Assembly: GCA_965207225.1 (NCBI GenBank)
Contig: CBDBLV010000004.1
Coordinates: forward strand, 160,001-224,000
Direction: 5' to 3'
DNA: 64,000 nt
Source: Dehalococcoidia bacterium
Lineage (GTDB): Bacteria > Chloroflexota > Dehalococcoidia > Plut-88900
Part shown: positions 3,797 to 50,999 of the stretch, piece after piece
How the letters are laid out: each line of letters starts with the position of its first letter
Numbering within the stretch: position 1 is the first letter of the stretch
The notes under the pieces: generated by a model
The model's input: the letters and a program-made list of their open reading frames with translations, nothing else
The model's database searches: none
Told to the model about the DNA's origin: nothing
Program-made: the position numbers and the translations under genes

Positions 3797-5337
3797 CTGC
3801 CCTGCTTGATGAAGTCTGCGACCTTCTCTCCCATAGTCATCACGGTGACATTGAGATTGGCACGCACAGTGTCAGGCATCATGGAAGCGTCCACGAGGCG
3901 CAAGCCCTCGACGCCGTAGACCCGACCGTATTGGTCGCAGACAGCAAGAGGGTCGCTGGTCGGGCCCATCTTGCAGGTGCTGGAAATATGGTGGGCAGTG
4001 AACACCTCGTGGAGCATCCAATCGTCCAAAAGATCGTCGTCGTTGAGGGTCTCGTCAGATGGAGCGTAACGCCTTTCGATGATATCTGAGAACGCGGGGT
4101 GGCTCAGAAGGGAGTCGGAGAGGCGGACGGATTCGCGCATGCGCTGAAGGTCGAAGGGGTCGTCCAGGAGATTGTAGTCGAGGATTGGCTGTTGCCGGGG
4201 GTCGGTGGACTGGAGCCGGAGATCGCCCTGGCTGACGGCGAGGTAAAGGCACGGGCCGACGCTAAACCCGACCGGGTCCTTTTCGTCGAGCCCCCTGTTG
4301 GGCCGCCTGGCGGAATAGTTGCCCATGTAGATGATCATGTCATTGGTGAAGGGCGAGCCCGTGGCGGTGTAGCGCAGGGTTACGGTACCCGTTGCGGTCA
4401 TGGGGAGGTCCATTGGGAAGTCGGGGAGGGTCAGGTAGCACATGGGCAACCAGGGATGATCTCGAAGGTTGCGCCCGACACCCGGCAAATCTTGCACAAC
4501 AGGAATGCCGAAGAACTGAAGCTGCTCCGCGGGCCCAATGCCGGAGAGTAAGAGGATGTGAGGAGTGCCGACTGCGCCTGCGCACAGGATGATCTCCTCC
4601 CCGTACACTGAGAACATCTCCTTGCCGCTTATCACCAGTAACCCCGCCGCCCGGTTGCCGTCGAAGATGATGCCGTGGACGAGGCAGTTGGGCCGGATGG
4701 TCAGGTTGAGTCGGTGCCGAATCGGGTTCAGGTAACCAATGGCGGTGCTTATGCGGATCTTGTCGATGATGTTGAAGGACAGGGGTCCGACACCCGTGGA
4801 GTCAGGGCGGTTGTGATCGGGGCAGTGGGGGAAGCCCATGTCTCGGGCGGCCTGGTAGAAGGCACGCTGGTGGGGAGGCCACTCATCCTCGGGGTGGCGG
4901 CTACAGGTGATGGTGCCGTCATTGCCGTGGAATTCGTCCCGGAAGTCCTGGTCGGCCTCCATGCATTTCATGTATGGAAGAACGTTGTCAAAGGACCACT
5001 GGTCGTTGCCCCATTCCGCCCAGCGATCGTAGTCCTCCCTTTCGCCACGGAGAAACTGGGCGCCGTTGACGGCGCTAGACCCTCCAGTGATCTTACCGCG
5101 GGGGATGTCCATGCGGGTTTTGGATGTGGCCCGGGCGCTGAAGTTCCAGAGGTGGTCGGAATCGAAAATCGATCTGCCTCCGTATGCAAGTTTGATCTCC
5201 TCAGGGAGACGCTCGATTTCGGGGAAGTCACCGCCAGCTTCGAGGAGGAGGACGGAGCGGTCGGGGTCTTCGGTGAGTCGGGCGGCGAGGGTTGCCCCCG
5301 CGGAGCCCGCTCCTACGATTATGTGGTCGTATTTCAT
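3793..5337 (-). CDS. GMC family FAD oxidoreductase, paralog 2
   Basis: Same GMC motifs (GAGSAG, RGKITGGSSAVN, HHISSTCKMG). Confidence 0.9.
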   Translation of the reverse strand: MKYDHIIVGAGSAGATLAARLTEDPDRSVLLLEAGGDFPEIERLPEEIKLAYGGRSIFDSDHLWNFSARATSKTRMDIPRGKITGGSSAVNGAQFLRGEREDYDRWAEWGNDQWSFDNVLPYMKCMEADQDFRDEFHGNDGTITCSRHPEDEWPPHQRAFYQAARDMGFPHCPDHNRPDSTGVGPLSFNIIDKIRISTAIGYLNPIRHRLNLTIRPNCLVHGIIFDGNRAAGLLVISGKEMFSVYGEEIILCAGAVGTPHILLLSGIGPAEQLQFFGIPVVQDLPGVGRNLRDHPWLPMCYLTLPDFPMDLPMTATGTVTLRYTATGSPFTNDMIIYMGNYSARRPNRGLDEKDPVGFSVGPCLYLAVSQGDLRLQSTDPRQQPILDYNLLDDPFDLQRMRESVRLSDSLLSHPAFSDIIERRYAPSDETLNDDDLLDDWMLHEVFTAHHISSTCKMGPTSDPLAVCDQYGRVYGVEGLRLVDASMMPDTVRANLNVTVMTMGEKVADFIKQGS

Positions 5338-5357
5338 GGGGTTTTCCCTATTGTTCG

Positions 5358-6908
5358 CTAGTTGCCCTGCTTGATGAACTCAGCGACTTTTTCTCCCATG
5401 GTCATGACGGTGACGTTCAGGTTGGCGCGCACGGTGTCGGGCATCATGGAGGCGTCGACCAGCCGGAGCCCCTCGACGCCGTAGACATGGCCGTACTGGT
5501 CGCAGACGGCGAGGGGATCGCTGGTCGGTCCCATCTTGCAAGTGCTGGAGATATGGTGGGCGGTCATTACCTCGTGGAGCATCCAGTCATCCAGCAGATC
5601 GTCGTCTGCGAACGTTTCGTCGGAAGGGGCGTTGCGTTTCTCCACTATGTCGGAGAAGGCAGAGTGTTTGAAGAAGGAGTCGGTGAGACGGACACATTCC
5701 CGCATTCGCTGAAGATCAAAGGGGTCATCGAGTAGGTTGTAGTCCAAGAACGGTTGCTGCCGGGGGTCGGTGGACTGGAGATGCAGTTCACCCTGGCTCA
5801 TAGCGAGGTAGAGCGCAGGCCCGACCCCGATGCCGATGGGGTTCTTGTCGTCGATTCCCCGGCCGGGTCTCACGGCGGCGTAGTTGCCCATATAGACGAT
5901 CATGTCGTTCACGAAAGGCGAGCCGGTGGCGGTGTAGCGAAGGGTGACAGCGCCTGAGGCCGGAGTGGGGGCATCCAGGGGGTAGTCGGGCTTGGTCACG
6001 TAGCACATAGGCAGATAAGGGTGGTCCCGCAGGTTTCGCCCGACCCCGGGTAGATCCTGTAATACGGGAATTCCCATCGAAGCGAGATGCTCCGCAGGCC
6101 CTACCCCCGACAAAAGAAGAATGTGAGGCGTGCCCACAGCGCCAGCACAAAGGATGATCTCCTCTCCGTAGACCGAGAACATCTCCCGGCCGCTGATGAC
6201 CAGCAGGCCCTCGGCACGGCTGCCATCGAAGATGATGCCGTGTACCAGGCAGTTGGGCCGGATGGTGAGGTTCAGTCGGTGGCGGCTCGGGTTCAGGTAG
6301 CCCAGGGCCGTGCTCTGCCGCACCCGGTCAATGATATTGAACGCCAGGGGCCCGACGCCTGTTGAGTCGGTGCGGTTGTGGTCGGGGCAGTGGGGGAACC
6401 CCGCGTTCCGGGCTGCCTCGTAGAAGGCGCGCTGGTGGGGAGGCCACTCGTCCTCGGGGTGGCGCCGGCACATGATTGGGCCGTCGTTGCCATGGTGCTC
6501 GTCCCGGAAGTCCTGGTCGGATTCCATGCGCTTCATGAAGGGCAGAACGTTTTCGAAGGACCATTGGTCGTTGCCCCACTCTGCCCAGCGGTCGTAGTCC
6601 TCGCGTACGCCGCGTAGGAACTGGGCGTCGTTGACCGAGCTTGAGCCTCCCGTAATCTTGCCCCGAGGAATGTCCATGTGGGTCTTGGAAGTGGCCCGGG
6701 CACTGAAGTTCCAGATGTGGTCGGAGTCGTAGATCGTCCTTCCGCCGTAGGCGAATTTGACCTCTTCTGGAATGCGGTCGAACTCGGGGAAGTCGCCGCC
6801 TGCTTCGAGAAGAAGGACTGAGCGGTCGGGGTCTTCGGTGAGTCGGGCGGCGAGGGTGGCCCCAGCGGAGCCCGCTCCCACTATGATGTGGTCGTATTTC
6901 ATAGTCAT
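5358..6908 (-). CDS. GMC family FAD oxidoreductase, paralog 1
   Basis: Same GMC motifs; AAAGGA RBS upstream. Confidence 0.9.
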   Translation of the reverse strand: MTMKYDHIIVGAGSAGATLAARLTEDPDRSVLLLEAGGDFPEFDRIPEEVKFAYGGRTIYDSDHIWNFSARATSKTHMDIPRGKITGGSSSVNDAQFLRGVREDYDRWAEWGNDQWSFENVLPFMKRMESDQDFRDEHHGNDGPIMCRRHPEDEWPPHQRAFYEAARNAGFPHCPDHNRTDSTGVGPLAFNIIDRVRQSTALGYLNPSRHRLNLTIRPNCLVHGIIFDGSRAEGLLVISGREMFSVYGEEIILCAGAVGTPHILLLSGVGPAEHLASMGIPVLQDLPGVGRNLRDHPYLPMCYVTKPDYPLDAPTPASGAVTLRYTATGSPFVNDMIVYMGNYAAVRPGRGIDDKNPIGIGVGPALYLAMSQGELHLQSTDPRQQPFLDYNLLDDPFDLQRMRECVRLTDSFFKHSAFSDIVEKRNAPSDETFADDDLLDDWMLHEVMTAHHISSTCKMGPTSDPLAVCDQYGHVYGVEGLRLVDASMMPDTVRANLNVTVMTMGEKVAEFIKQGN

Positions 6909-12801: not shown

Positions 12802-13488
12802 ATGGAATCCCTGGAAGAACTGAACGATCGCATAGTTTCCTGCACACGGTGCCCGAGGCTCATACAGTGGTGTCGGGACGTGGCGCAGGCAAAGCGTCGC
12901 ATGTACATTGATTGGGAGTACTGGGGAAAGCCGGTGCCCGGGTTCGGGGACCCGGAGGCTCGGGTGCTGGTGGTCGGGCTGGCACCCGCAGCCCACGGGG
13001 CCAACCGCACGGGCCGACTCTTCACCGGTGACGACAGCGGCAACTGGCTTTACAACGCCCTATTCCGGCAGGGCTGGGCCAACCAGCCGATAGCTACCCA
13101 TCGCGGCGACGGCATGACACTTACCGACGCGTACATTACGGCCGCGGCCCGGTGCGCTCCACCCCAGAACCGCCCCACCCCCGAGGAGCTATCCAACTGC
13201 ATTCCCTACCTGGATGCAGAGTTGGACCTTCTGGACAGGCTGGAAGTTGTGATAGCGTTCGGCGGGATTGCCTTTGACCGGTTTCTGCGGTTGTGGAAGA
13301 GTCGGGGGAACGAAGTTCCGGCACCCAGGCCCCGGTTCGGCCACAACGTGGTCCACGAACTGCCGCCGGGTCTGAAGCTGGTCGGGTGCTATCACCCGAG
13401 CCGGCAGAACACCAATACGGGCAAACTGACCCGCGAAATGCTCGATGAGGCATTTGCTACGGCGAAGTCGCTCCTCACCAATCCCTGA
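12802..13488 (+). CDS. Uracil-DNA glycosylase, family 5 (UdgB-like)
   Basis: CTRCPRL Fe-S motif, GLAPAAHGANRTGR, YHPSRQNT. Confidence 0.9.
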   Translation: MESLEELNDRIVSCTRCPRLIQWCRDVAQAKRRMYIDWEYWGKPVPGFGDPEARVLVVGLAPAAHGANRTGRLFTGDDSGNWLYNALFRQGWANQPIATHRGDGMTLTDAYITAAARCAPPQNRPTPEELSNCIPYLDAELDLLDRLEVVIAFGGIAFDRFLRLWKSRGNEVPAPRPRFGHNVVHELPPGLKLVGCYHPSRQNTNTGKLTREMLDEAFATAKSLLTNP

Positions 13489-13545
13489 TCCAGTCGCAAC
13501 GCTGTATAATTCCCACGGACTTTCAGACACCCCGAGGCTTTACCC

Positions 13546-14847
13546 ATGACTCACGGCAACCTTTCCACCTTCCCTTCGACCACCATCATCAACAACCAGG
13601 ACCATTTGTCCATCGGCTGCTGCGATCTCATAGACCTCGCCCAGGATTTCGGAACGCCCCTATACATCTTTGACGAGGTCACGCTCCGGGACATGTGCGC
13701 CCAGTTCCGGGATGAGTTCGCCTCCCGCTACCCCGACTCCCAGGTCCTCTACGCCAGCAAGGCCTACATCAACCCGGCCCTAGCCCGGATTTTCAGCGAG
13801 GAAGGACTGGGGCTTGACGTAGTCTCGGGCGGCGAGCTGGCCGTGGCGCAGGCCGCAGACTTCAACGCCAATCTCGTCTACTTCCACGGCAATAACAAGG
13901 GCCCCGAGGAGCTTGAAGCGGCCCTGGACTGGGGAATCGGACGGGTGGTTGTCGATAACCCACGGGAGATGGAGCTCATTGATGCGATCGCCCGGGACCG
14001 GGGCATCGTACAGGATATCCTGATACGTGTTTCTCCGGGCGTCGACCCTCATACCCACAGCCACACCACGACGGGCATCCTGGACAGCAAATTCGGCATT
14101 CCGATAGAGACGGGACTGGCGGAGCAGGCCGTTCAGCAAGCCATGTCGTCTGCCAATCTGCGGCTCCTGGGTCTCCACTTCCACCTCGGGTCTCCCATCT
14201 ACGAGATAGAGCCGTATACCACCGCAATCGACGTCACGATGTCCTTCGCTTCAGAAATGGAGGACCGGCACGGGCTTGAGCTCAAGGAGTTCAGCCCGGG
14301 GGGCGGCTTTGCCATCCAGTACACCGCAGACGAACCTCCACCCGACGTCTCCCAATACGCCGACGCCATAACATCGGCAATTCTGGAACGTACCCAGACT
14401 CCACCCCGGCTCCTCATTGAGCCAGGTCGGGCGATTGCGGGTCGGGCGGGGGTGGCCCTGTATAGCGTCGGGACCACAAAGGACGTGCCCGGAATCCGCA
14501 AGTACGTCTCGGTGGACGGCGGGATGGGGGACAACATACGGCCGGCCATCTACGGGTCCCGATACGAGGCAATGGTTGCGAACCGGGCGTCGGCACCGAT
14601 CCAGGAGACGGTCACCATCGCCGGCAAGTTCTGTGAGTCGGGGGACATCCTCGTGGAAAACGTAGATCTCCCCGTAGTGGACAGCGACGACCTGATAGCG
14701 ATTCCAGCCTCCGGTGCGTACTGCCTTGCCATGGCCTCCAATTACAACGCCGCCCCCCGACCACCCATCGTCCTGGTCAAGGACGGGGAGCCACGCCTGA
14801 TCCGCCGCCGGGAGACCTTCCAGGATCTCATGCTGTGCGATCTCTGA
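13546..14847 (+). CDS. lysA: Diaminopimelate decarboxylase
   Basis: YASKA PLP lysine, HGNNK, HFHLGS, EPGRA, GKFCESGD, MASNYN. Confidence 0.95.
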   Translation: MTHGNLSTFPSTTIINNQDHLSIGCCDLIDLAQDFGTPLYIFDEVTLRDMCAQFRDEFASRYPDSQVLYASKAYINPALARIFSEEGLGLDVVSGGELAVAQAADFNANLVYFHGNNKGPEELEAALDWGIGRVVVDNPREMELIDAIARDRGIVQDILIRVSPGVDPHTHSHTTTGILDSKFGIPIETGLAEQAVQQAMSSANLRLLGLHFHLGSPIYEIEPYTTAIDVTMSFASEMEDRHGLELKEFSPGGGFAIQYTADEPPPDVSQYADAITSAILERTQTPPRLLIEPGRAIAGRAGVALYSVGTTKDVPGIRKYVSVDGGMGDNIRPAIYGSRYEAMVANRASAPIQETVTIAGKFCESGDILVENVDLPVVDSDDLIAIPASGAYCLAMASNYNAAPRPPIVLVKDGEPRLIRRRETFQDLMLCDL

Positions 14848-38836: not shown

Positions 38837-39985
38837 CTAGCGGAATTGGCGGAAGAACTCTCGCATGTCCTGGGCCAGCTCCTGGGGTTTTTCCATGGCG
38901 GCGAAATGGCCGCCTCGGGGGAATTCGGTCCATCTCTGGACGTTGTGGGAACGATCGGCCCATTCTCTAACGGGGCGGTCGAGCTCTTCGGGGAAGACGG
39001 CCACGGCGGTAGGGACGTTAATTCTCTCGCCCTGGGCCATGCGCCAGTTGTCTTTTCGGGTCTCGTAGTAGATGCGGGTAGAGGAATTAATGGTCCCGGT
39101 GACCCAATAGAGGGTGACGTTGGTGAGGATCTGGTCCTTGGTGTAGACACTTTCGATGTCACCTTCGCAGTCGGACCAGGAGCGCCATTTTTCGACGATC
39201 CAGGCTGCGAGACCGGCTGGGGAGTCGTTGAGGCCGTAGGCGAGGGTCTGGGGTTTGGTGCCCTGGATGTGGCCGTAGGCGCCCTCGTCGTCTTCCCACC
39301 GGGCCAGTTCCTTCACGTATTGCTTTTCGGGGTCAGAGAGGGGTCGGGAGCCGGGGCCCAGGTAGGGCCTGCCTCCGAAGACCATGTTGATGTGGATGGC
39401 TTTGACCTTATCAGCGTGGCCAAAGCCCATCCTTGAGGAGATGGATGCTCCCCAGTCGCCGCCCTGGGCCACGTAACTATCGTAGCCGACCTGGTCCATC
39501 AGCCTGGCGAACACATCGGCGATGCCGTTGACGCCCATGCCGGGGACCTTAGGCATGCCGGAGAATCCATAGCCGGGCAGGGAAGGAGCAATCACGTCGA
39601 AAGAATCTTTGGGGTCGCCGCCGTGGGCTGCGGGGTCGGTGAGAAGGGGGATGAAGTCCAGGAATTCGGTGATGGAGCCGGGCCAGCCGTGGATGAGGAG
39701 GAGGGGAAGGGGGTCGGGGCCCCTGCCTCTCTCGTGGATGTAGTGGATGTCGAGGCCGTCAACCTCGGTGATGAACTGGGAGTAGCGATTGATCTTCGCT
39801 TCCTGCTCTCTCCAGTCAAACTCCTCGATCCAGTAGTCGACCAGCTCCTTGAGGTAGGCCAGGTTTGAGCCATAGTCCCAACCGGAATCAGGGATTTCGT
39901 CGGGCCAGCGGGTGCGTTTCAGGCGCTGTTGCAGGTCATCAAGTATGTCTTGCTTTATGTTTGCTCGAAACGGTGAAGCGGGCAT
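38837..39985 (-). CDS. Epoxide hydrolase (microsomal-type, EHN + alpha/beta hydrolase)
   Basis: HGWPGS, PSLPGYGFS, QGGDWG, DSPAGLAAWIVEKW, GGHFAAME. Confidence 0.93.
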   Translation of the reverse strand: MPASPFRANIKQDILDDLQQRLKRTRWPDEIPDSGWDYGSNLAYLKELVDYWIEEFDWREQEAKINRYSQFITEVDGLDIHYIHERGRGPDPLPLLLIHGWPGSITEFLDFIPLLTDPAAHGGDPKDSFDVIAPSLPGYGFSGMPKVPGMGVNGIADVFARLMDQVGYDSYVAQGGDWGASISSRMGFGHADKVKAIHINMVFGGRPYLGPGSRPLSDPEKQYVKELARWEDDEGAYGHIQGTKPQTLAYGLNDSPAGLAAWIVEKWRSWSDCEGDIESVYTKDQILTNVTLYWVTGTINSSTRIYYETRKDNWRMAQGERINVPTAVAVFPEELDRPVREWADRSHNVQRWTEFPRGGHFAAMEKPQELAQDMREFFRQFR

Positions 39986-42136: not shown

Positions 42137-42553
42137 ATGGAGTACGACGACGCACGCACTTTTCTCTCAACAAACTTTGATGCAGTGGTGAACACGTTCA
42201 GGAGGTCGGGGGCGATCCAGACGAGCGTGGTCAAGGCAGGCGCCTACCAGGGCGGGGCGGTGTTCGTGGCGATTGGGAACTCGGCGAAGCTGAAGAACCT
42301 GCGTCGGGACCCGAGGTGTACCGTGACAGTGGTGAGCCCGCACTGGGACCGCTGGTGCGCCGTCGAGGGCACTGTTGTCATCCGGGACTGGGAGAACACC
42401 GACCACGAAGCTCTAAGGGTGGAGCTACGAGAGGCCTTCGTTGCATGTGGCGGCGCTCACGATGACTGGGAAGAGTATGACCGGGTGATGAGGGAAGACC
42501 GTCGGGCGATAGTGGTGGTCAGTGGGGACCACGTATACGGGCAGGGGATCTAG
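42137..42553 (+). CDS. PPOX-class (putatively F420-dependent) oxidoreductase
   Basis: AKLKNLRRDPRCTV, HDDWEEYDRVMREDRR. Confidence 0.8.
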   Translation: MEYDDARTFLSTNFDAVVNTFRRSGAIQTSVVKAGAYQGGAVFVAIGNSAKLKNLRRDPRCTVTVVSPHWDRWCAVEGTVVIRDWENTDHEALRVELREAFVACGGAHDDWEEYDRVMREDRRAIVVVSGDHVYGQGI

Positions 42554-43449
42554 CCCAGCATCTTCAGCGCGCCTGCCTCTACGGATATCTCGGCGGGGGT
42601 CTGGGAGACCTTTTCCCCATCTGCCCAGATGGGCATTGGGGCCTCGGTCTCCAGTTTGAGGCTTTTCACCCTGTGAATCGAGACCGCGGGATGCCTGGTA
42701 TGACCGCCCTTGAAGACCCGGGGCAGGATCATCACCACGTCGCATCTTGAGACTGACTTTACGAGGCACACGTCCAGCATGCCATCATTGGGGAGGGCAT
42801 CGGGGGCGATGTGCATGTTGCCGCCGTACTGTCGGGTGTTGGCGGTCGCGGTCAGGAACGTCCGGCCGGAGTAGCTCAAGCCGTCACCTTCCAGGCTAAC
42901 CTGAACGTCCCTGTAGCGGAACAGTTGCAGGAAGATGGCGTAGAGATACGAAGGGGTGCCCTTGAGAAAGCGAGGCACATGGCCGTCGGCAACGTACTGG
43001 CTCACGGTGCTGTCGAAGCCCAGAGTTGCGACCGTAGCGAAGTACCTGCCACCTACAACACCCAAGTCAACAAGCCTGGTTTTGCCGGACAAGATGAGGT
43101 CTCGGATTTCCACAGCAGTCTTTGGGAGGCCAAGGGCCGTTGCGAAGTCGTTGCACCTGCCAGAAGGCGCAACCCCGACGGTCACGTTATGTCCTCCGTG
43201 GCCGGACATCACCCCGTTGATCACCTCGTGGAGCGTACCGTCGCCGCCACAAGCCAGGACGCCTGCGATGCCATTCTCCACTGCCGCAGCCGCCATTGAT
43301 TCGGCATCACCGGGAGCTGTGGTGTAAAGGACATCGCTGGGAATATCGGCGCCAGTGAGGAGATTTCCGATGCGCTCTGCGAGTCGCAGGCTGGCACCCT
43401 TGCCGGAGGTCGGGTTGGCAATGATGGTCCACGAATCGCTGCTAACCAT
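42550..43449 (-). CDS. Diacylglycerol/lipid kinase family (YegS/DgkB-like)
   Basis: ANPTSGKG, GGDGTLHEV, PSGRCNDFA, YGGNM, ADGE. Confidence 0.9.
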   Translation of the reverse strand: MVSSDSWTIIANPTSGKGASLRLAERIGNLLTGADIPSDVLYTTAPGDAESMAAAAVENGIAGVLACGGDGTLHEVINGVMSGHGGHNVTVGVAPSGRCNDFATALGLPKTAVEIRDLILSGKTRLVDLGVVGGRYFATVATLGFDSTVSQYVADGHVPRFLKGTPSYLYAIFLQLFRYRDVQVSLEGDGLSYSGRTFLTATANTRQYGGNMHIAPDALPNDGMLDVCLVKSVSRCDVVMILPRVFKGGHTRHPAVSIHRVKSLKLETEAPMPIWADGEKVSQTPAEISVEAGALKMLG

Positions 43450-43451
43450 TG

Positions 43452-45038
43452 CTAGGTCACGTCGCAGAGGAAGATGGGCGGGTAGTGAAACATTGAGACC
43501 TCGGGGGAGGGGCCGACGCTGTCCCTGGCCATCTCGAGGGCGGTGGGGACGTCGGGGGCAGTCTCGTAGCCCAGCCGCTCGGCGACAGACTTGTCCCTGG
43601 CACCTGCCACGATGACCCGACCCAGGTAGTCCTGCCCGTAGCAAGCCCAGTACCACATATAGAAGGGATGCACGCCGTGGTAGGCGTAGGACTCCCGATA
43701 GAGTCGTCGATACCGCTCATCGTCTGCATACACCGCTTCGAAGCGCTTTTCGATTTCGGCGGCGTCCTGGGTCTGGGGGAGGATGTTGTTGTAGAAGTCG
43801 ATATAGGAGGGGTGGTGGGTGGCGTTGAAACGCTCGTCCAAGGGGTGGGTGAAGATGAGCACTCCTCCCCGTTTAACCAGCGGTTTGCCCCGGTACATGT
43901 TGAAGCTGTAGCCGAGGGCCAGGGTGTGGATAAGCAAGGGGTTCAGGAAGGAGTTGACGTTGTAGGGACAGAGGTAGGGCAGGCCCATGACCATTACGTC
44001 GGCCTGGCCCTCAACCGGGACGGTCTGCTGCTTGAACAGGGTGGACAGGATCTGATCATGGACCATGTCCGTGTCGCCGGCGGCGACGTCCAGAAGGCCG
44101 TAGGGCGAGCGGAGGTTCTGGAAGATCTGCCATCTAAGGTAGAAGGGCGCGATATTCAGGGCCGGGCGGTTGACACCGAAGGTGATTTTGTCGATGAGAT
44201 TCCAGTCCGACTCCTGCTTCTGCAGGTGGGACAGTATCGAGGGAAAGGTGTTGGAGTTAAGCGCGGTCTCGATCTTGAAGACGTTCAGGTTCTTTGCCAC
44301 GACCTTGCCCATGCCGTTGACCGAATCGTGGAGGGCCGAACGGGTCGGGTCCATGTAGGACTCACAGCGCATCAGGGTGTGTACGTTATGGTGGTGACGG
44401 ATGGTCTTGTAGCTGACGAGGCCCGTGTTAATGGACTTGTGGCCCCCGTCCATGGATGAGAGGTTGATGTTGACGTAGATGAGCAAGTCTGAGTCGGCGA
44501 TCCGTTTTGAGGTCTCCACCTCTTCGCCGTGCTCGGTGGCGCCCAGGACAACGAGATTGTCACGGTCTTCAGCATCAAAGTTGTAGAGCCTGTCGGGATG
44601 GAAGCGGTTGAAGACCTTCCTACCAAGGGCTCTCTTCAATTCGCCGGGCGTCATGCGCCTATGGAGGCCAAGGGCAGCGACGAGGTGGATATCATCGACG
44701 CCCTTTTCGGCGAGGACTTTGAGCACTGCTTCGACGATGCGCTGGCGCATGTCGGGTCGGGTCATGGGGGGGAGGGGAAGGGAGATATCGTCGAAGGCGA
44801 TGGTCACCTTCATGCCGGGCCTGAGATGTTCGGACAGGGGGTCCTGGCCCAAGGGGTTTTCGAGGGCGTTGGCTATCGCAGCGTCGGGGTCTTTGATAGC
44901 GGGGAGGGGGGGTGGGGGGTAGATGACACGGGCTCCGACGGGCAGCTCCTCGTACCGGAAGGACTCCCCGTGGTGCATGAGGAATCGCTGCCCGGGCTTT
45001 TCCACCCGCTTAACCAGTTTGCTCTTGTCTATTTCCAA
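43452..45038 (-). CDS. LarA-like (DUF2088, lactate racemase domain) protein
   Basis: ALENPLG..PL, IAFDDISLP, ALGLHRRMT, GGHKS, GGVLI. Confidence 0.8.
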   Translation of the reverse strand: MEIDKSKLVKRVEKPGQRFLMHHGESFRYEELPVGARVIYPPPPLPAIKDPDAAIANALENPLGQDPLSEHLRPGMKVTIAFDDISLPLPPMTRPDMRQRIVEAVLKVLAEKGVDDIHLVAALGLHRRMTPGELKRALGRKVFNRFHPDRLYNFDAEDRDNLVVLGATEHGEEVETSKRIADSDLLIYVNINLSSMDGGHKSINTGLVSYKTIRHHHNVHTLMRCESYMDPTRSALHDSVNGMGKVVAKNLNVFKIETALNSNTFPSILSHLQKQESDWNLIDKITFGVNRPALNIAPFYLRWQIFQNLRSPYGLLDVAAGDTDMVHDQILSTLFKQQTVPVEGQADVMVMGLPYLCPYNVNSFLNPLLIHTLALGYSFNMYRGKPLVKRGGVLIFTHPLDERFNATHHPSYIDFYNNILPQTQDAAEIEKRFEAVYADDERYRRLYRESYAYHGVHPFYMWYWACYGQDYLGRVIVAGARDKSVAERLGYETAPDVPTALEMARDSVGPSPEVSMFHYPPIFLCDVT

Positions 45039-45087
45039 ATCAACACCTTTATGGACAGGGCCTTGACGTTAGTGTAGCAAGCCTGAT

Positions 45088-46314
45088 TCAGCCGGGAAAG
45101 GAGAAGGCCACCTTGGCCCCACCCAGCCTCCCGGCCCGTCCTGCGATTACCAAGGCATCCTTGTAGCGACGGATGGGAAACCGGTGAGTGACGAGGGCCG
45201 CCAGCCGGTCACGCAGTTCCTGGTTTTTCATCAGACGAATTGCCAAGTCGAAAGTCTTGACGTGCTCGTTTGCAGTGTGTTCCAGGCCGTAGGCATAGGC
45301 GCCGGTGAGGCGCACCTGCTGGTGCCACAGGGGGGTGAGGTCGGTGCGGGCGTCAGAGGGCATGCCTAGAGCTACTACGGCGCCATTCTCCTCCGTCCAC
45401 CTGACGGCGTCATCCAGGGCCGCGGAGCTCCCGACACACTCGTAGACGACGGGAAATCCACCAACCACCGCGGGTTTCTCCCGAATGACCGGCAAAAGCT
45501 TTGCTCCAACTTCGCCAGCAAGCTGCTCGTAGCCGTTCACGCCGGGAGGGTAGACGGTGTCGGCGCCCAGGGCCCGGGCGGTGGTGGCCTGGGAGGGGTA
45601 CTTGGCGACGGCGATGATGCGGGTGTCGGGTCTCAGGGCCCTCAGGGCGGCGATGGTCAAGAGGCCAACCACACCACACCCGAGGACCAGCGCAGGACCC
45701 GGCTCAGCGGGTTCTGCCCGGAGCACGCCGTGAATGGCGCAGGAGAGGGGTTCAATAAGCACTGAGGCCTGGTCGGAGAAATCAGTCGGGACGGGGTGGA
45801 GCTGGGAGACATGAGCAACAAATCTCTCTCCCCAGCCACCCGGCAGGCTCCTACAATACCCGGTCTGCAAACCCGCACCCACCGCTCCTTCCGTAGCCCG
45901 TATACAGTTTGCATAGCGACCGGCTGCACAGGCGGGACAGGCTTCGGAAAAGCCCCTGACCGTGCACCCGAGAGCCGGTTCTATTGCTACACGGTCACCG
46001 ACCTTGAAACCCTGGACTTGTGCTCCGGTCTCGATTATCTCGCCCACAACCTCGTGGCCGGGGACGAAGGGAAAGGAGGTGAAGCCAGAGAGGTAAAGAC
46101 TGCCCTTGCTCTTAATCACTGCAAGGTCCGAGCCACAGATGCCGCTAAGGATGGTGCGCAATTTGACCCAATCCGGGCGGGGGAGCTGGGGTTCGGGAAC
46201 ATCTTTCAGGCGAAGGAGGCTGGTCGGGCCGAGGGCGAATCGGGGGAAGGGCCCGGACAGAACCCGGGTCAGAAGATACCGAGGTACGCTCTTGTAAATG
46301 ACCAGGGCTTTCAC
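45088..46314 (-). CDS. Zinc-binding (MDR family) dehydrogenase
   Basis: SGICGSD, GHEVVG, structural Cys cluster, GCGVVG nucleotide-binding motif. Confidence 0.9.
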   Translation of the reverse strand: MKALVIYKSVPRYLLTRVLSGPFPRFALGPTSLLRLKDVPEPQLPRPDWVKLRTILSGICGSDLAVIKSKGSLYLSGFTSFPFVPGHEVVGEIIETGAQVQGFKVGDRVAIEPALGCTVRGFSEACPACAAGRYANCIRATEGAVGAGLQTGYCRSLPGGWGERFVAHVSQLHPVPTDFSDQASVLIEPLSCAIHGVLRAEPAEPGPALVLGCGVVGLLTIAALRALRPDTRIIAVAKYPSQATTARALGADTVYPPGVNGYEQLAGEVGAKLLPVIREKPAVVGGFPVVYECVGSSAALDDAVRWTEENGAVVALGMPSDARTDLTPLWHQQVRLTGAYAYGLEHTANEHVKTFDLAIRLMKNQELRDRLAALVTHRFPIRRYKDALVIAGRAGRLGGAKVAFSFPG

Positions 46315-46371
46315 GGTTATCTGGGAGTTGCGTCGGTTTGAATCATCTCTTGAGCCTTAAAGCCGGACCAA

Positions 46372-47067
46372 CTAAGACGGTTTGCCCTTGCTCGTCCAGT
46401 GTCGCACGGGCCAGCCTCGGGAGCGGGCGAGTTTCTCAAGACGACGCTCGGGGTTCACCGCAACCGGATGTCCGACCAGCTCAAGGAGTGGCAGGTCGGA
46501 CATATCGTCTGCATAGGCGTAGGACTCGGAGAGGTCTACGCCTGATTGGGTTGCCCAGGTTTCGGCGGCCTCGGCCTTGGCAGTGCCGCTCAGGGGTCCT
46601 GACGACAATTCTCCAGTGAATCGCCCCGCCGACACCCCGCAGCGGGAGGCCATCACTTCGTCGGCCTGGAGAAGTTCGCCCAAAGGGACGACCATTTCGA
46701 AAAGTCCGCCAGTCAGAAGCACAACTTTGTGACCTTGTTCTCGGTGCCTGTTGACCTGGTCTCGTGCCTCTTGAAAAAGGTGTCGGGACCAATAAGCGCG
46801 GCCGGGGCCCTGGGTCCAGCGTTCCATGGCTTCCACGGAGACTCCATTGTAATTCTTGAAGAACCTCTCGATAAAACGCACGCGGTCGAGCCAGTCCAGG
46901 TAGGCGTAGAGAGGCGCTTTGGCCAGCACGCCCCCCACCGAGATGGCCTTGCCCAATAGGCTCTTGCCGTCCAAGGTGAAGTCCAGATACGCGTCGAGAA
47001 GGTTGGAAGAAGCACTGGTGCGGTCTACGTCGAAGAAGGCTGCCGGGTGGGCGTTAGTCGGGCCCAT
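46372..47067 (-). CDS. HAD-IB family phosphatase (SerB-like)
   Basis: AAFFDVDRT, LLTGG, K, YADDMSDLPLL, VNP. Confidence 0.88.
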   Translation of the reverse strand: MGPTNAHPAAFFDVDRTSASSNLLDAYLDFTLDGKSLLGKAISVGGVLAKAPLYAYLDWLDRVRFIERFFKNYNGVSVEAMERWTQGPGRAYWSRHLFQEARDQVNRHREQGHKVVLLTGGLFEMVVPLGELLQADEVMASRCGVSAGRFTGELSSGPLSGTAKAEAAETWATQSGVDLSESYAYADDMSDLPLLELVGHPVAVNPERRLEKLARSRGWPVRHWTSKGKPS

Positions 47068-49303
47068 GCAGAGCCTCAACTGCAGCCTGGACTTCGCCGG
47101 TGACCTCCCGGGTAAGCTCTCCGAGGGCCCTGGGGTCGTTCCCATTGGCTTTGCCCGAGGAGTGAAGGGGCTGACCGAACCGGATGATAACGGGACGGCG
47201 CTTTACGAACCAGGAGCCCTTGGGCATGGCCTTGTCGGAGCCGACGATGAGGGTGGGAATGACGGGGGCGTCGGACATCAGGGCGAGGAAGCCGATCCCG
47301 TTCTTGAACGGCTGCATTAGGCCGGGCTGGCCCCTGCTTCCCTCGGGATAGAAGACCAAAGAGTGGCCTTTCTCAAGCACGGCAAGGGCCAGTCCGAGCT
47401 CTTCCCGAGCGGTTGACTGCCTATTGAATGGGATGGCGTTGAAGAGGATGCGCACGGTGCGGGCCATGAAGGGGTTTTCGAAGAAGTAGTCCTTGGCGGC
47501 GACGGGGTGGAGGTTGCGGGCCTTGGGGCCGAGAGCATGGAAGATGACGGGGGTGTCCATGTGGCTGTTATGGTTGGCAGCGATGATGAAGGGGCCGGAG
47601 TCGGGGACGTTATTCAATCCCTCGCAACGGAACCCGGTCCACCACCTGATAGCCCAGGTCATCGGCATGAACAGGGCCTTGCCGAGGGCCCGGGTCCACG
47701 GAGAGACTCTGAGCCACTTTTCGGCTTCCGCCTTGAGAGCAACGTCGGAGGCGCGGAGGGCCCTGGTGTCGGCGTCTGGCTCCATGCCCAGGAGGTATTT
47801 CTTGACGCCAGGTATGTGGACACCCTGGAGGTAGGTGGTCCAGTCAAGGCTGGCGATATCAAAGTCGAAGTGCTCCCGGTCGGACTCGTGGAGGGACTCC
47901 ATGACACTGCGGGTGTTGTTGGTGAGGAACTTGCAGTCCGCCTCGGCGTAGGGGCCGTAGAGCCGTCCGTACTGGTATAGACGCTCCAGGGAGAACATCT
48001 TTGACTTCAGCCTCGTACGGAAACGTCGGGCGTGAGGAATGAGGGAGAACGGTGTGGTGACTGCAATGGCTGCCCGGAGGGGCAGCATGTACTTCAGCCG
48101 GATCCGGCGAAGAAACTTGGGGGTGGTGGGGAAGGTGGGTTTGATCAGCTTCCTAGGCTTCCCATTTTCGTCTCCGGATACCGGGAAGGGGTTCATCTGG
48201 AAGTAGGCGTCCACCTGGTCCGCGAAACCCCCGAGCGTTATGGGGTTCTCCATCCCGGAAGCTATCTGGAAAACCTCCCGGGTATCGAACTCCGACGCCT
48301 TCGCAATGGTGGCGAGAATTGCGTTTGCCACCATGTCCACGGGGATGATATCGAGGATGCCGTTGCGATTGCCGGGAAAATCGATCATGCGGCCCCGGCC
48401 ATAGGCGACGATGAGGGGGTCGAGCATCCGGTAGCCGTTCAGCCAGCCTGGCAGGGGAGATTTCCAGGCCCCTTCGATGATTGCGGGCCTGATGATGGCG
48501 CCTCTCAGGCCCTCCGTGCTACGGACGAACATCTGCTCACCCATAGCCTTTGAAAAGGTGTAGACGTCCTGCCACCCGCGTCGGTGGGCCCACTCCATAC
48601 CAACTCTGCTCAACTCGCGGTCAAGGCGCTCCGACTCAGTGCGGTTGACTTCGGGACTCGAGCCCCTTATAGACCGTGCTTTCTCAAGGACGGCCGAAAC
48701 CTCCGTTTCCAAGTCATACGGGGACTGGGGAAGGCCGTTAATGTGACCGACCGTGCGGGTGGGGTCGGGGAGTTCCTCGGGGACAGGGCCTTTTCTAGTA
48801 GCGTTCACGTAGCAAGTCGAGACCTGGGCGAAGAATGCATCGTTGCAGCCCTTTGCGAAGTCGGCGATTCGTCGAGGGCCAAGGGTATTGAGTCCTACAG
48901 CCTTATCCAGGGGCGCATCGAAGGAGACCACGGCGGCGCAGTTGATGATGATGTCTACTTCGCGCTGGAGACGATCGTAAACCTCGGGCTCGAGGCCCAA
49001 TTTTTCGGAGGCCACGTCTCCGGAAACTGCCTGCACTTTGGCGTGGAAAAGACTATCAAAGGGGCCGCCGAGCCGGTCCTTCAAGGGGTCGAAGATCTGG
49101 GAATCGTAGACTTCCTGCTTAAGGCGCTCCTCAATGGAAACGGGGGAAGCGCCGGGTCGGGTCTTGGGCCGGACGAGGACGTAGACCTTTTCCACTTCGG
49201 CCAGATGGCTAAGGAATCTCTCCAAAAGCACCTTTCCCAGCAAGCCGGTGCCGCCAGTGAGAAGGACGGTCTTTCCCCTATAGAAGTCTTGAAGTTTCTG
49301 CAA
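47054..49303 (-). CDS. Fatty acyl-CoA reductase (male-sterility type) fused to a PlsC-type acyltransferase
   Basis: TGGTGLLG, VSTCYV, YTFSK, RPAII; C-terminal ANHNSHMD and YPEGSR. Confidence 0.88.
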   Translation of the reverse strand: MQKLQDFYRGKTVLLTGGTGLLGKVLLERFLSHLAEVEKVYVLVRPKTRPGASPVSIEERLKQEVYDSQIFDPLKDRLGGPFDSLFHAKVQAVSGDVASEKLGLEPEVYDRLQREVDIIINCAAVVSFDAPLDKAVGLNTLGPRRIADFAKGCNDAFFAQVSTCYVNATRKGPVPEELPDPTRTVGHINGLPQSPYDLETEVSAVLEKARSIRGSSPEVNRTESERLDRELSRVGMEWAHRRGWQDVYTFSKAMGEQMFVRSTEGLRGAIIRPAIIEGAWKSPLPGWLNGYRMLDPLIVAYGRGRMIDFPGNRNGILDIIPVDMVANAILATIAKASEFDTREVFQIASGMENPITLGGFADQVDAYFQMNPFPVSGDENGKPRKLIKPTFPTTPKFLRRIRLKYMLPLRAAIAVTTPFSLIPHARRFRTRLKSKMFSLERLYQYGRLYGPYAEADCKFLTNNTRSVMESLHESDREHFDFDIASLDWTTYLQGVHIPGVKKYLLGMEPDADTRALRASDVALKAEAEKWLRVSPWTRALGKALFMPMTWAIRWWTGFRCEGLNNVPDSGPFIIAANHNSHMDTPVIFHALGPKARNLHPVAAKDYFFENPFMARTVRILFNAIPFNRQSTAREELGLALAVLEKGHSLVFYPEGSRGQPGLMQPFKNGIGFLALMSDAPVIPTLIVGSDKAMPKGSWFVKRRPVIIRFGQPLHSSGKANGNDPRALGELTREVTGEVQAAVEALHGPD

Positions 49304-49453
49304 ATGAATAGGTGAGGCTCGGCCAATGTGAAGGCCGATATCGGCCGGAGGCCTTTTATATCCGCCCAGGCCTCGGCGCTGCGCTCAGCGCGATGAATTA
49401 TAAATACAGGTGCGAAACTCGTCTATTGCGGACAGCAGTCGGGGAGAAGTCAT

Positions 49454-50020
49454 TCACTGGGCTGCGAGGATACTTGCGACGTCGGCAAGGCACTTGACCC
49501 GAGTCACGTTGGAGAGGTAATCGTAGTTGCGGTTCCTGGGCCAATCTCGTAGGAATACGGTTTTCAGGCCTTTACGGGACAGGATGTCGGCGACCCGGCC
49601 GTCATCATCGACAAACTCCTGTATACCGAGTCGGGAGCACGTTTGCCATTTGAAGTCGGGGGAGGGGAGCCCGAGGGAGTTGGCGTGGACCTCTTGAAAA
49701 AGGTCTGCAAACCCATGCCTCTTTAGCCAGGCGGTTATCAGATCTTTGCCCGTTGCGTTCCGGCTGGTCACGAGGACGGGGGTCCGGTATTTGCTAATGG
49801 CCTCGATGCCGGCGAGGGCGCCGGGCAAAGGTCGGCGCCCAAGATATTTCAGCTTCAGAAAGAGCTTCAGGGCCTGCAACATCAACCCTTGAGGCGATCT
49901 GCGATTCATCTGACGAGGATGGTACTCTCTGTAGGGCCCCGAGGCTATGGGCAGATTGAGGCCCAGGGGTGGTCGGCAGATCACGCCGTCCATGTCTATG
50001 CCGATCAGCGGCTTTTCCAT
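49454..50020 (-). CDS. HAD superfamily (5'-nucleotidase-like) hydrolase
   Basis: GIDMDGVI, VTSR, K, FVDDD. Confidence 0.7.
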   Translation of the reverse strand: MEKPLIGIDMDGVICRPPLGLNLPIASGPYREYHPRQMNRRSPQGLMLQALKLFLKLKYLGRRPLPGALAGIEAISKYRTPVLVTSRNATGKDLITAWLKRHGFADLFQEVHANSLGLPSPDFKWQTCSRLGIQEFVDDDGRVADILSRKGLKTVFLRDWPRNRNYDYLSNVTRVKCLADVASILAAQ

Positions 50021-50123
50021 CGGAATCCTTCGCGGAATTGTAGCCACATTTTAGCCCACAAAGTTCCCCGTGCTTAGCCATGTGTTACTATCCGCGCAGC
50101 AAACGGCACAGGAGGGCGAGATC

Positions 50124-50999
50124 GTGAAACACCTTGGAGCCGAGCAGATTTGCCACCGATTCTCCGCAGAGGACGAACCTGCCGTACGCGTGGGGTCAGG
50201 AGAGAGATTCACCGTTACGACTACGGACAGGTTCAAGGACGTTTCACGCACCGATCCCGATTTCGCGAGATCAAAGATAGTGCGGTCAATGAACGGGCCG
50301 ATCTATGTGGAAGGGGTGAAGGCCGGAGACACACTCAAGGTGGAATTCCTGTCCATGTCTCCCGCCGAGCCCCAAGCCTACGTCCTTGCGCTGCCGGGCG
50401 CCGGGGCACTGGGCGATAGGATTTCCAGTTTTCGGATGATAGAAGTCCAGATCTCCGAAACGGAGGCCGTGTTCCCGAGCGGAGCATCCATTCCCTTCAG
50501 GCCGATGCTGGGCCAGATTGGCGTCGCGCCTGAAAAAGGTGAAGCGCAGCTCGGGGATACTGGGCCGTTCGGGGGGCAGTTGAGCATTACGGATGTCACG
50601 GCGGGATCGGCCCTCTACCTTCCCGTATTCCACGACGGAGCATACCTGGCGATGGGAGACTCGCATCTCGCCATGGGAGAGGGAGAAGCTACGAGCTCGG
50701 CGGTGGAGGGTTCGATGAAGATCACCATGCAGGCATCGGTTTCACAGGACCTACAGGTGAAGGAGCCCCTAATCATCACAGCGGACCACGTGATCACGTT
50801 TGGTCGGGGGCGGACGTTGAACGAGGCCGGTGAAGTTGCAACGCTAGCGATGTCTAACTTGCTGACGGAGCGGCTGGGGGTCTCTGCAGTGGAGTCTGCA
50901 ATGTTGATTGGATGTGCGGCAGACCTACGGGCGGCGTTGGCCCTCTATACACCTTACAGCATGAAGATGCTGATGCCTCGGGGAAGCTTGTCGCTGTAA
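50124..50999 (+). CDS. Acetamidase/formamidase family protein
   Basis: NGPIYVEGVKAGDTL, PMLGQIGVAP, LYLPVF, GDSHLAMGEGE; GGAGG RBS with GTG start. Confidence 0.87.
   Translation: MKHLGAEQICHRFSAEDEPAVRVGSGERFTVTTTDRFKDVSRTDPDFARSKIVRSMNGPIYVEGVKAGDTLKVEFLSMSPAEPQAYVLALPGAGALGDRISSFRMIEVQISETEAVFPSGASIPFRPMLGQIGVAPEKGEAQLGDTGPFGGQLSITDVTAGSALYLPVFHDGAYLAMGDSHLAMGEGEATSSAVEGSMKITMQASVSQDLQVKEPLIITADHVITFGRGRTLNEAGEVATLAMSNLLTERLGVSAVESAMLIGCAADLRAALALYTPYSMKMLMPRGSLSL

Follow-up and report, generated by a model that had tools for sequence, protein, structure and literature searches.

How would an alkyl chain be joined to a glycerol backbone by an operon that pairs a fatty acyl-CoA reductase (FAR) and an acyltransferase not with the ether-specific flavoenzyme alkyl-dihydroxyacetone phosphate (alkyl-DHAP) synthase (AGPS), but with a homologue of LarA (LarAH), an enzyme whose cofactor is a nickel-pincer nucleotide (NPN)? 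This question is raised by a stretch of 64,000 nucleotides (hereafter the window; positions 160,001-224,000 of contig CBDBLV010000004.1, assembly GCA_965207225.1) from a Dehalococcoidia metagenome-assembled genome (MAG) that is 92.3% complete with 8.33% contamination. Five tightly packed genes in the window, all on the minus strand and spanning 42550-49303, are best read from their sequences as a single operon whose product would be a lipid of the membrane or of storage, with an alkyl chain derived from a fatty acid on a backbone of the glycerol-phosphate type. We observe that AGPS and LarAH are alternatives in FAR-based loci, and we give an even chance to the operon being a Dehalococcoidia variant of the FAR-dependent ether-lipid pathways (elb, FARAT/AGPS), with LarAH and a Zn-dehydrogenase in the slot of AGPS and its reductase.

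A five-gene operon led by a FAR-acyltransferase fusion

The genes of the operon, and the two domains of the lead gene, are as follows (window coordinates, in order of transcription).

47054-49303, minus strand: FAR-acyltransferase fusion (FAR-AT), 749 aa, TTG start; PF07993, PF03015, PF01553
47783-49291, minus strand: FAR domain, residues 5-507 of the fusion, range matched to PDB 7eoz
47246-47632, minus strand: PlsC-type acyltransferase domain, residues 558-686 of the fusion; PF01553, 76 bits
46372-47067, minus strand: HAD-IB phosphatase, 231 aa; TIGR01490
45088-46314, minus strand: Zn-dependent medium-chain dehydrogenase, 408 aa, GTG start; ADH_N and ADH_zinc_N
43452-45038, minus strand: LarA homologue, LarAH14/15/16, 528 aa, TTG start; NF052592
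42550-43449, minus strand: YegS/Rv2252/BmrU-type soluble lipid kinase, 299 aa, ATG start; TIGR00147

HAD-IB and FAR-AT overlap by 14 nt (ATG of the former, stop of the latter), an arrangement that predicts translational coupling of the two; the following gaps are 57 nt (HAD-IB to Zn-dehydrogenase), 49 nt (Zn-dehydrogenase to LarAH) and 2 nt (LarAH stop to kinase ATG). The original prediction from which this analysis started had described five close minus-strand genes with a second HAD gene 150 bp upstream, and had placed a Zn dehydrogenase and a diacylglycerol-type lipid kinase in the cluster; the gene layout and the Pfam and NCBIfam matches uphold both statements, the HAD fold of the upstream gene being assigned by model.

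The lead gene matches PF07993 at 215.7 bits, with PF03015 and PF01553 in the same single chain (NAD_binding_4 at residues 15-329, Sterile at 440-505). Residues 5-507 match the fatty acyl-CoA reductase of PDB 7eoz (E 1e-80) and residues 555-726 match PlsC of PDB 5kym (E 5.4e-14), with TIGR00530 below its cut-off. The YTFSK motif (Y248, K252), the NHNSHMD motif (H578, D583) and the GxxGxxG Rossmann motif are invariant across 15 homologues. Judged by these matches, the N-terminus is predicted to be an alcohol- or aldehyde-forming fatty acyl-CoA reductase and the C-terminus a PlsC-family acyltransferase, in agreement with the earlier description of a YTFSK-type FAR joined to an HxxxxD acyltransferase. 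Pfam found no AMP-binding or PP-binding domain in the window fusion, so the adenylation and acyl carrier protein (ACP) domains of ElbD are missing from it, as had been claimed.

The module is conserved across five phyla

A profile of the 15 fused homologues retrieved 509 relatives from contigs of one genome per species; the best 80 loci (L numbers hereafter) were kept, and their neighbours were called by tblastn with the window proteins (coverage of at least 50%, E of at most 1e-10). One locus, from a Dehalococcoidia MAG (L001), is 99% identical to that of the window, and no Myxococcota locus was among the loci from the profile search. FAR, HAD-IB and LarAH stand together in 29 of the 80 FAR-anchored loci, in five phyla (Chloroflexota 12, Actinomycetota 13, Eiseniibacteriota 2, Armatimonadota 1 and Gemmatimonadota 1), and because it recurs in this way the gene arrangement is far beyond chance; the synteny in other genomes on which the original prediction had staked itself is present. 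All 29 LarAH loci carry HAD-IB, 24 the Zn-dehydrogenase and 12 the kinase.

The FAR-AT fusion is the type of the window and its Dehalococcoidia relatives, and a FAR-HAD fusion that of the three actinobacterial loci scanned (L058, L066 and L069; L066 has a separate PlsC gene after LarAH). An Armatimonadota locus (L032) carries a full ElbD-type FAR-AMP-PP-AT gene, then HAD-IB, Zn-dehydrogenase and LarAH. In L023 a FAR-AMP-binding-HAD-IB fusion of 1234 aa (L023:9959-13663) precedes a Zn-dehydrogenase. LarAH lies on another contig in the L009 genome, and the L023 and L030 genomes have a below-cut-off copy (~510 bits) elsewhere; we note that the LarAH-like gene of the L023 genome (513 bits) is ~2 Mb from the fusion.

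A second test covered 401 Chloroflexota genomes (G numbers hereafter), 6 of them unpublished. Fifteen score over the LarAH14/15/16 cut-off, and G240 adds one split copy. FAR-domain matches (query residues ~5-527) were likewise found in 15 of the 401 genomes, all of them LarAH-bearing; FAR and LarAH sit on one contig within ~4 kb in 14 of these 15, and in G074 they are on separate short contigs. One genome (G176) has LarAH and no FAR match at E 1e-30, and the other 22 Chloroflexota genomes in the tally matched the generic acyltransferase part only. FAR and LarAH14/15/16 thus co-occur near-exclusively in Chloroflexota.

AGPS and LarAH are alternatives in FAR-based loci

The 80 loci divide into 15 with AGPS, 29 with LarAH, none with both and 36 with neither (mostly ElbD-type genes with the kinase, or short contigs). 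This alternation of AGPS and LarAH is new here. Outside Chloroflexota, the gene after the FAR-AT fusion (L014, L016, L022, L025) encodes a FAD_binding_4/FAD-oxidase_C protein of 617-653 aa, which in L016 is a true AGPS (PDB 4bby, E 3.3e-136, residues 49-611) with a short-chain dehydrogenase/reductase (SDR) gene next to it. AGPS loci usually carry an SDR; a Latescibacterota cluster (L020) runs FAR, a 650-aa protein, AGPS, SDR and YegS kinase. None of five genomes with an AGPS cluster scores over the LarAH14/15/16 cut-off. Conversely, AGPS is absent from the window, as had been stated, and also from the rest of the genome, where the best match (E 8.2e-16) covers the FAD-binding domain only, in GlcD/E-like frames. 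Nor does the window's genome contain an HGD-D domain that would suggest a PlsA/Ger-type route (PF06050, which we take to be the marker of PlsA/Ger).

In a tree of the 80 FAR domains (quick maximum-likelihood search, midpoint root), each context label requires at least 4 changes, against 12.8 for shuffled labels, and the contexts are interleaved. The window clade is sister to the AGPS-type FARAT clade (SH-aLRT 88), and L033, with LarAH, is sister to L029, with AGPS (support 100).

These observations bear on a rival account, possible in our view though unlikely, in which the pathway is of the ether-lipid type but LarAH, the Zn-dehydrogenase and HAD-IB tailor the polar part (a phosphorylated polyol or sugar-like backbone, the head group, or stereochemistry), the ether bond coming from FAR-AT or from an enzyme elsewhere. 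Such tailoring would agree with the existence of ElbD-type clusters in genomes without LarAH14/15/16. It sits less easily with LarAH and AGPS sharing none of the 80 loci though their FAR partners are close relatives, an exclusion more in keeping with substitution at one and the same step than with tailoring as an optional extra; nor does it sit well with the almost one-to-one pairing of FAR and LarAH14/15/16 in the 401 Chloroflexota genomes, or with the operon having no sugar-handling gene by Pfam.

Some clusters hold further conserved proteins. A protein of 640-650 aa lies directly after standalone FAR genes in 12 of the 80 loci (for example L020:11636-13588 and L018:11798-13726), in both AGPS-type and LarAH-type clusters and in the slot of the missing acyltransferase; it has no Pfam, NCBIfam or PDB sequence match, and shows a non-significant resemblance to the PlsC block at residues ~531-592. 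The Eisenbacteria cluster L018 also encodes a 689-aa protein between HAD-IB and the dehydrogenase (L018:14441-16510), with a faint STT3-like match (TIGR04154, E 8.5e-5) and a 60%-identical copy in L059. In L007 an LPG_synthase_TM gene adjoins LarAH.

LarAH is a predicted NPN enzyme with a single catalytic histidine

The window LarAH matches NF052592 (LarAH_14_15_16; model name 'NPN-dependent hydroxyacid isomerase, LarAH14/15/16') at 805.5 bits against a cut-off of 740. Its nearest solved relatives by sequence are the LarA-like proteins 9q2u/9q3k (E 6.7e-34) and 9q3j, which have a single catalytic His. The AlphaFold model (pLDDT 90.6) has the full-length LarA fold; its top structural matches belong to the LarA family, the best being 9q3k_A (E 1.1e-34, TM 0.78/0.85, rmsd 2.9 Å). 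HMMER alignments to 9q2u and 6d6z, read against the residue list of PMC12611868 (section 2.5), place D84 with the ribose Asp, H126 with the catalytic His, K201 with the NPN-anchoring Lys (thioamide link) and H217 with the Ni ligand His, the last 16 residues past K201, the spacing seen in LarA. A deletion removes the residue that would match the second catalytic His (His174 of L. plantarum LarA), and the position of the carboxylate-binding Arg/Lys aligns with Leu87. Section 2.1 of the same paper reports LarA groups 14 and 15 to be without an equivalent of His174. By these alignments LarAH is a LarA-superfamily member predicted to be an NPN enzyme with a single catalytic His and, since racemisation needs two, is probably not a racemase.

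Published work gives context in two directions. A Frankia LarAH14 is reported as inactive on every 2-hydroxy acid tested, and Desguin 2020 raises the possibility that such proteins catalyse another hydride-mediated reaction (both PMC7583248). The solved relatives 9q3k and 9q3j are described, in section 2.6 of PMC12611868, with carbohydrate-metabolism neighbours and a modelled phosphorylated aldose ligand, which lends support to tailoring of the polar part.

The genes for the cofactor, larB, larC and larE, are all present in the window's genome over their cut-offs, away from the operon. As the genome encodes a total of three Lar_N proteins, they are not reserved for the LarAH of the operon. LarC adjoins the cluster only in L010 and L012 (2 of the 80 loci), and LarB and LarE are not beside the FAR cluster in any of the 80. 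The original description of a minimal route accordingly needs qualifying, in that the route also depends on these NPN genes elsewhere in the genome. In L010, also of the Dehalococcoidia, LarC (PF01969, nickel insertion; 13150-14331) lies on one flank and PlsY (PF02660, glycerol-3-phosphate (G3P) acyltransferase; 5095-5820) on the other.

H126, K201 and H217 are kept in 23 of the 29 LarAH orthologues. The remaining six (L064, L069, L072, L073, L077 and L078, from Mycobacteriales, Microlunatus and Propionibacteriaceae) are degenerate; R98, R127, the DAED motif, H454 and H457 are invariant even in these. That six loci keep a LarAH without its cofactor residues is a further point for tailoring.

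Three side observations concern this family. Cultured Microlunatus ginsengisoli JCM 16929 carries a degenerate LarAH, and L069:12417-13922 is an example of such a gene. Outside the window, its genome encodes another long LarA homologue (G000:C5:1664067-1665476), a 505-aa frame whose match to the LarAH14/15/16 model is split in two (215 and 211 bits) and falls below the cut-off. A search of plasmid records with the LarAH protein gave no match at E 1e-20.

The Zn-dehydrogenase accompanies cofactor-competent LarAH

In 15 orthologues of the dehydrogenase C60, H87, E88, E188, the four structural-Zn Cys and the GxGxxG motif are all invariant. The second Rossmann strand ends in A237-K/R where NAD enzymes have Asp, a substitution from which we infer that the enzyme is probably NADP(H)-linked. 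Among solved structures, ketose reductase and sorbitol dehydrogenase are nearest to it (E 2e-22); it falls below the cut-off of every named NCBIfam equivalog and on that ground is a distinct subfamily, with a family-specific GLQTGYC..GGGW loop. Closeness to polyol and ketose dehydrogenases, with scyllo-inosose 3-dehydrogenase among the equivalogs whose cut-off was not reached, is again what a tailoring role on a polyol or sugar-like backbone would lead one to expect.

All 23 loci with a residue-intact LarAH carry the Zn-dehydrogenase, and five of the six with a degenerate LarAH are without it; these five form one clade and hence represent few events. This coupling between the cofactor residues of LarAH and the presence of the dehydrogenase is new here.

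A phosphatase and a lipid kinase complete the operon

HAD-IB scores 122.2 bits with TIGR01490 (cut-off 98.3), and a DVDRT (DxDxT) motif was read in its sequence; its resemblance to phosphoserine and histidinol phosphatases would also suit tailoring of the polar part. The kinase matches TIGR00147 at 156.6 bits (cut-off 118.65), with DAGK_cat and YegS_C domains and a GGDGT motif, and a homologue of it adjoins FAR in 28 of the 80 loci, spanning LarAH-, AGPS- and ElbD-type contexts.

The combination of kinase, phosphatase and dehydrogenase is reminiscent of gene sets for catabolism or salvage, and scavenged alkyl- or acylglycerols could be substrates of the lipid kinase. The operon might on these grounds salvage or degrade exogenous alkylglycerols or other lipids instead of building them; we hold this to be highly improbable, as the anchor genes of the module, FAR and the PlsC-type acyltransferase, are biosynthetic, the conserved gene set includes no transporter or lipase, and the dehydrogenase bears what appears to be an NADP(H)-type signature.

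Fatty-alcohol lipids without an ether bond

The original prediction had offered alkyl glycerol ethers, long-chain diols and wax esters as possible products. What stands of it is a conserved, uncharacterised FAR/acyltransferase operon of the ether-lipid kind in a Chloroflexota organism; the long-chain diols do not stand. FAR and an acyltransferase could make alcohol esters, and LarA enzymes normally act on 2-hydroxy acids (PMC7583248, PMC11770544), so that wax esters, free alcohols or alkane-1,2-diols of the Thermomicrobium/Nitrolancea type deserve a hearing (in the diol case LarAH would act on a 2-hydroxy acyl or aldehyde compound). Lipids based on 1,2-diols are near-isosteres of 1-O-alkylglycerol lipids; they occur in Chloroflexota, their biosynthesis being given as unknown (PMC2615216, PMC3504966), and T. 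roseum membranes are reported to consist of them (PMC2615216).

The alkane-1,2-diol route was examined in five Thermomicrobium-type genomes and is not supported. One of these (G171) shares with the Thermomicrobium roseum megaplasmid NC_011961.1 a gene that is 100% identical. This genome and its four congeners, all 99% complete, contain no Lar_N protein (0 of 5) and no FAR match at E 1e-30, with only weak generic NAD_binding_4 matches of at most 47 bits, and NC_011961.1 is among the plasmid records in which LarAH has no match (E 1e-20). The sister FARAT genes of the window fusion adjoin AGPS, an ether-specific enzyme, which tells against non-ether products as a class. To our knowledge, PlsC-family acyltransferases are not the usual wax synthases, a point against wax esters in particular. 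Taken together we consider non-ether fatty-alcohol lipids improbable.

Relation to known ether-lipid and LarA systems

The elb operon of M. xanthus offers the first comparison. Its mutants in elbD lose alkyl and vinyl ether lipids, AGPS is reported to contribute little to the ether lipids of this organism, an i15:0 aldehyde was linked to ElbD whereas no fatty alcohol was, and the steps up to the alkyl ether, like most steps of the pathway, are given as unknown (PMC9131029). The same review describes ElbB as HAD-like, bearing out the earlier statement that the elb cluster includes a HAD gene, and lists ElbC as a protein of unknown function; PMC9426513 and a sponge preprint likewise assign ElbC to no family. 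Like elbABCDE, the window has FAR and PlsC/AGPAT-type domains in one protein (PMC9131029, PMC13012113), a HAD phosphohydrolase gene (compare elbB) and a reductase gene, and in L032 an ElbD-type gene is followed directly by HAD-IB, Zn-dehydrogenase and LarAH (LarAH three genes downstream). Unlike ElbD (FAR-AMP-binding-ACP-AGPAT), found in full in L032, L037 and L045, the window fusion has no adenylation or ACP domain; there are no NAD-dependent epimerase/dehydratase genes (elbA, elbE), the sole separate oxidoreductase being the Zn-dependent medium-chain enzyme; a YegS-type lipid kinase is added; and the gene order differs. ElbD homologues in Chloroflexota MAGs have already been published (PMC11868695).

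FARAT, also known from the eukaryotic FARAT/AGPS plasmalogen pathway (PMC13012113, PMC9131029), has the same two domains, the window protein being an N-terminal FAR and a C-terminal GNPAT/AGPAT-type acyltransferase in one chain. The AGPS-linked bacterial FARATs (L014, L016, L022, L025, L031 and L036) are 35-41% identical to it, and the FARAT-AGPS-SDR order of L016 is that of MXAN_1676-1675-1674 of M. xanthus (PMC9131029). Both systems have a ketone reductase (an SDR in the FARAT and AGPS operon, the Zn-dehydrogenase in the window), and the YegS kinase is shared with AGPS-type L020 and L035. Unlike the FARAT and AGPS route, the window is without AGPS and has a LarA-family NPN enzyme and HAD-IB in its place. 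What is new in the window is a FARAT-type fusion together with the LarAH set and the kinase in Dehalococcoidia.

LarASp and LarABw (9q2u/9q3k and 9q3j; Gatreddi et al. 2025, PMC12611868) resemble the window LarAH in length (~500 aa), in the single catalytic His and in keeping the NPN Lys, Ni His and ribose Asp; their substrate is likewise described as not known. The window protein is 19-22% identical to them over structural alignments. They have Asn at the His174 position, which is deleted in the window LarAH, their Lys replacing Arg75 aligns with its Leu87, and their reported context is glycolytic or sugar-related whereas that of the window is lipid-related.

The same five activities as in the window are found in operons of FAR-HAD, Zn-dehydrogenase, LarA-like and PlsC genes (L058, L066, L071, L075 and 13 further Chloroflexota genomes), with LarAH 50-55% and the Zn-dehydrogenase 40-45% identical to those of the window. 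In these FAR is fused to HAD-IB, the acyltransferase is separate and after LarAH, and there is no lipid kinase, in contrast to the FAR-AT fusion and kinase of the window. Our literature search found no paper linking LarA/DUF2088 to ether lipids, the words 'lipid' and 'fatty' occur 0 times in the text of two LarA superfamily papers as available to us, and the search returned nothing specific on ether lipids of Dehalococcoidia or SAR202.

Upstream and flanking genes

Two further features were annotated upstream of the operon.

49454-50020, minus strand: HAD-fold gene, 188 aa, 150 bp upstream of FAR-AT; HAD fold by AlphaFold and Foldseek
49397-49425, minus strand: promoter-like site TAGACG-17-TATAAT in the gap before FAR-AT; a weak hint only

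The upstream HAD gene matched no Pfam or NCBIfam family. It bears a DxDGV motif, and among the top Foldseek matches listed for its AlphaFold model (pLDDT 81.7) there are only HAD hydrolases (best E 1.9e-7). It is conserved before FAR-AT only in L001-L005 (5 of the 80 loci), and is probably a lineage-specific accessory gene with its own transcript. The promoter scan gave 1 promoter-like site against 2.0 expected from shuffles, and the terminator scan no minus-strand terminator; these scans do not define the operon ends. Of the six records listed as containing the stretch, which come from two studies, none is registered as RNA.

The six-gene run is flanked by genes on the opposite strand, PNPOx-like at 42137-42553 and FmdA-like at 50070-50999. 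The PNPOx-like gene (plus strand) scores 24.1 bits with Pfam, short of the 28.1 cut-off; it is convergent with the kinase gene, whose stop it overlaps by 4 nt, and is a conserved neighbour in L001-L006. An epoxide hydrolase gene (38837-39985, minus strand; EHN and alpha/beta hydrolase) lies 2.6 kb past the operon end, with an ABC permease gene and the PNPOx-like gene on the other strand in between, and there is no sign of its membership.

A proposed mechanism in which LarAH would form the ether bond

We assign LarAH and the Zn-dehydrogenase to the AGPS slot by inference, and the following scheme would accommodate the five genes. The FAR domain would reduce acyl-CoA to a fatty aldehyde or alcohol, and the PlsC-type domain would acylate the backbone, either DHAP or the sn-2 position of 1-alkyl-G3P. 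The single-His NPN enzyme would make a keto intermediate resembling 1-O-alkyl-dihydroxyacetone(-phosphate), whose ketone the NADPH-type Zn-dehydrogenase would then reduce. Alkyl(acyl)glycerols would pass back and forth between their free and phosphorylated states through the action of HAD-IB and the YegS kinase.

The chemistry that we favour, speculatively, is hydrogen borrowing. The NPN cofactor would take the C2 hydride of G3P, the C1 hydroxyl would condense with the aldehyde, and the cofactor would return the hydride to the oxocarbenium ion, giving alkyl-DHAP and water. The conversion of aldehyde and G3P to alkyl-DHAP and water is redox-neutral and would need just a parked hydride and one acid/base residue, and an alkyl-DHAP product would explain why cofactor-competent LarAH always accompanies a ketone reductase. 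Equally open is an AGPS-like reaction of acyl-DHAP with an alcohol, in which the electrophilic C4 of NPN would be used as AGPS uses flavin N5. That a single-His NPN enzyme forms the alkyl ether bond of bacterial glycerolipids, replacing the flavoenzyme AGPS, is a tentative proposal, and one that we doubt more than we believe.

Several findings weigh against placing LarAH in the AGPS slot, or against an ether-lipid function altogether. The 80 loci are related to one another, so that their counts are not independent events, and the FAR tree comes from the quick, midpoint-rooted search described above. LarAH is not universal, as the genomes of L037 and L045 (ElbD-type with the kinase) score only 93 and 68 bits, and in the degenerate LarAHs the residues for catalysis (His), for NPN (Lys) and for Ni (His) are gone. 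The reverse check is unclean: one of five LarAH-type genomes has a FAD oxidase with 31% identity (E 1.1e-49) that covers AGPS residues 130-611, and the best AGPS-like matches of the other four are 1.8e-32, 5.7e-31, 3.8e-12 and none, the two near 1e-31 also being unwelcome. To place a kinase beside a phosphatase in the same operon seems futile, unless each works on a different intermediate. Cultured Pontiella is reported to have ElbD homologues but no detected ether lipids (PMC11868695), and the substrate suggested for the closest solved LarA homologues by their authors is of a carbohydrate type (PMC12611868, section 2.6).

Implications for ether-lipid biosynthesis and the LarA superfamily

How the alkyl ether bond is formed in aerobic bacteria outside the AGPS route is unsolved, and the locus makes this step testable. 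A FAR-based module pairs with either AGPS or a nickel-pincer LarA homologue and a Zn-dehydrogenase, and the latter two are a concrete candidate for the missing ether-lipid chemistry. An orphan LarA group (14/15/16) thereby gains a lipid context; if the NPN reading of the ether bond is true, the LarA superfamily would gain its first non-isomerase, lipid-directed reaction and the elb pathway its missing step. Bacterial ether lipids, including precursors of brGDGTs (branched glycerol dialkyl glycerol tetraethers), serve widely as environmental biomarkers, and with the module the Dehalococcoidia of soil and water would join the groups for which an ether-lipid capacity is predicted.

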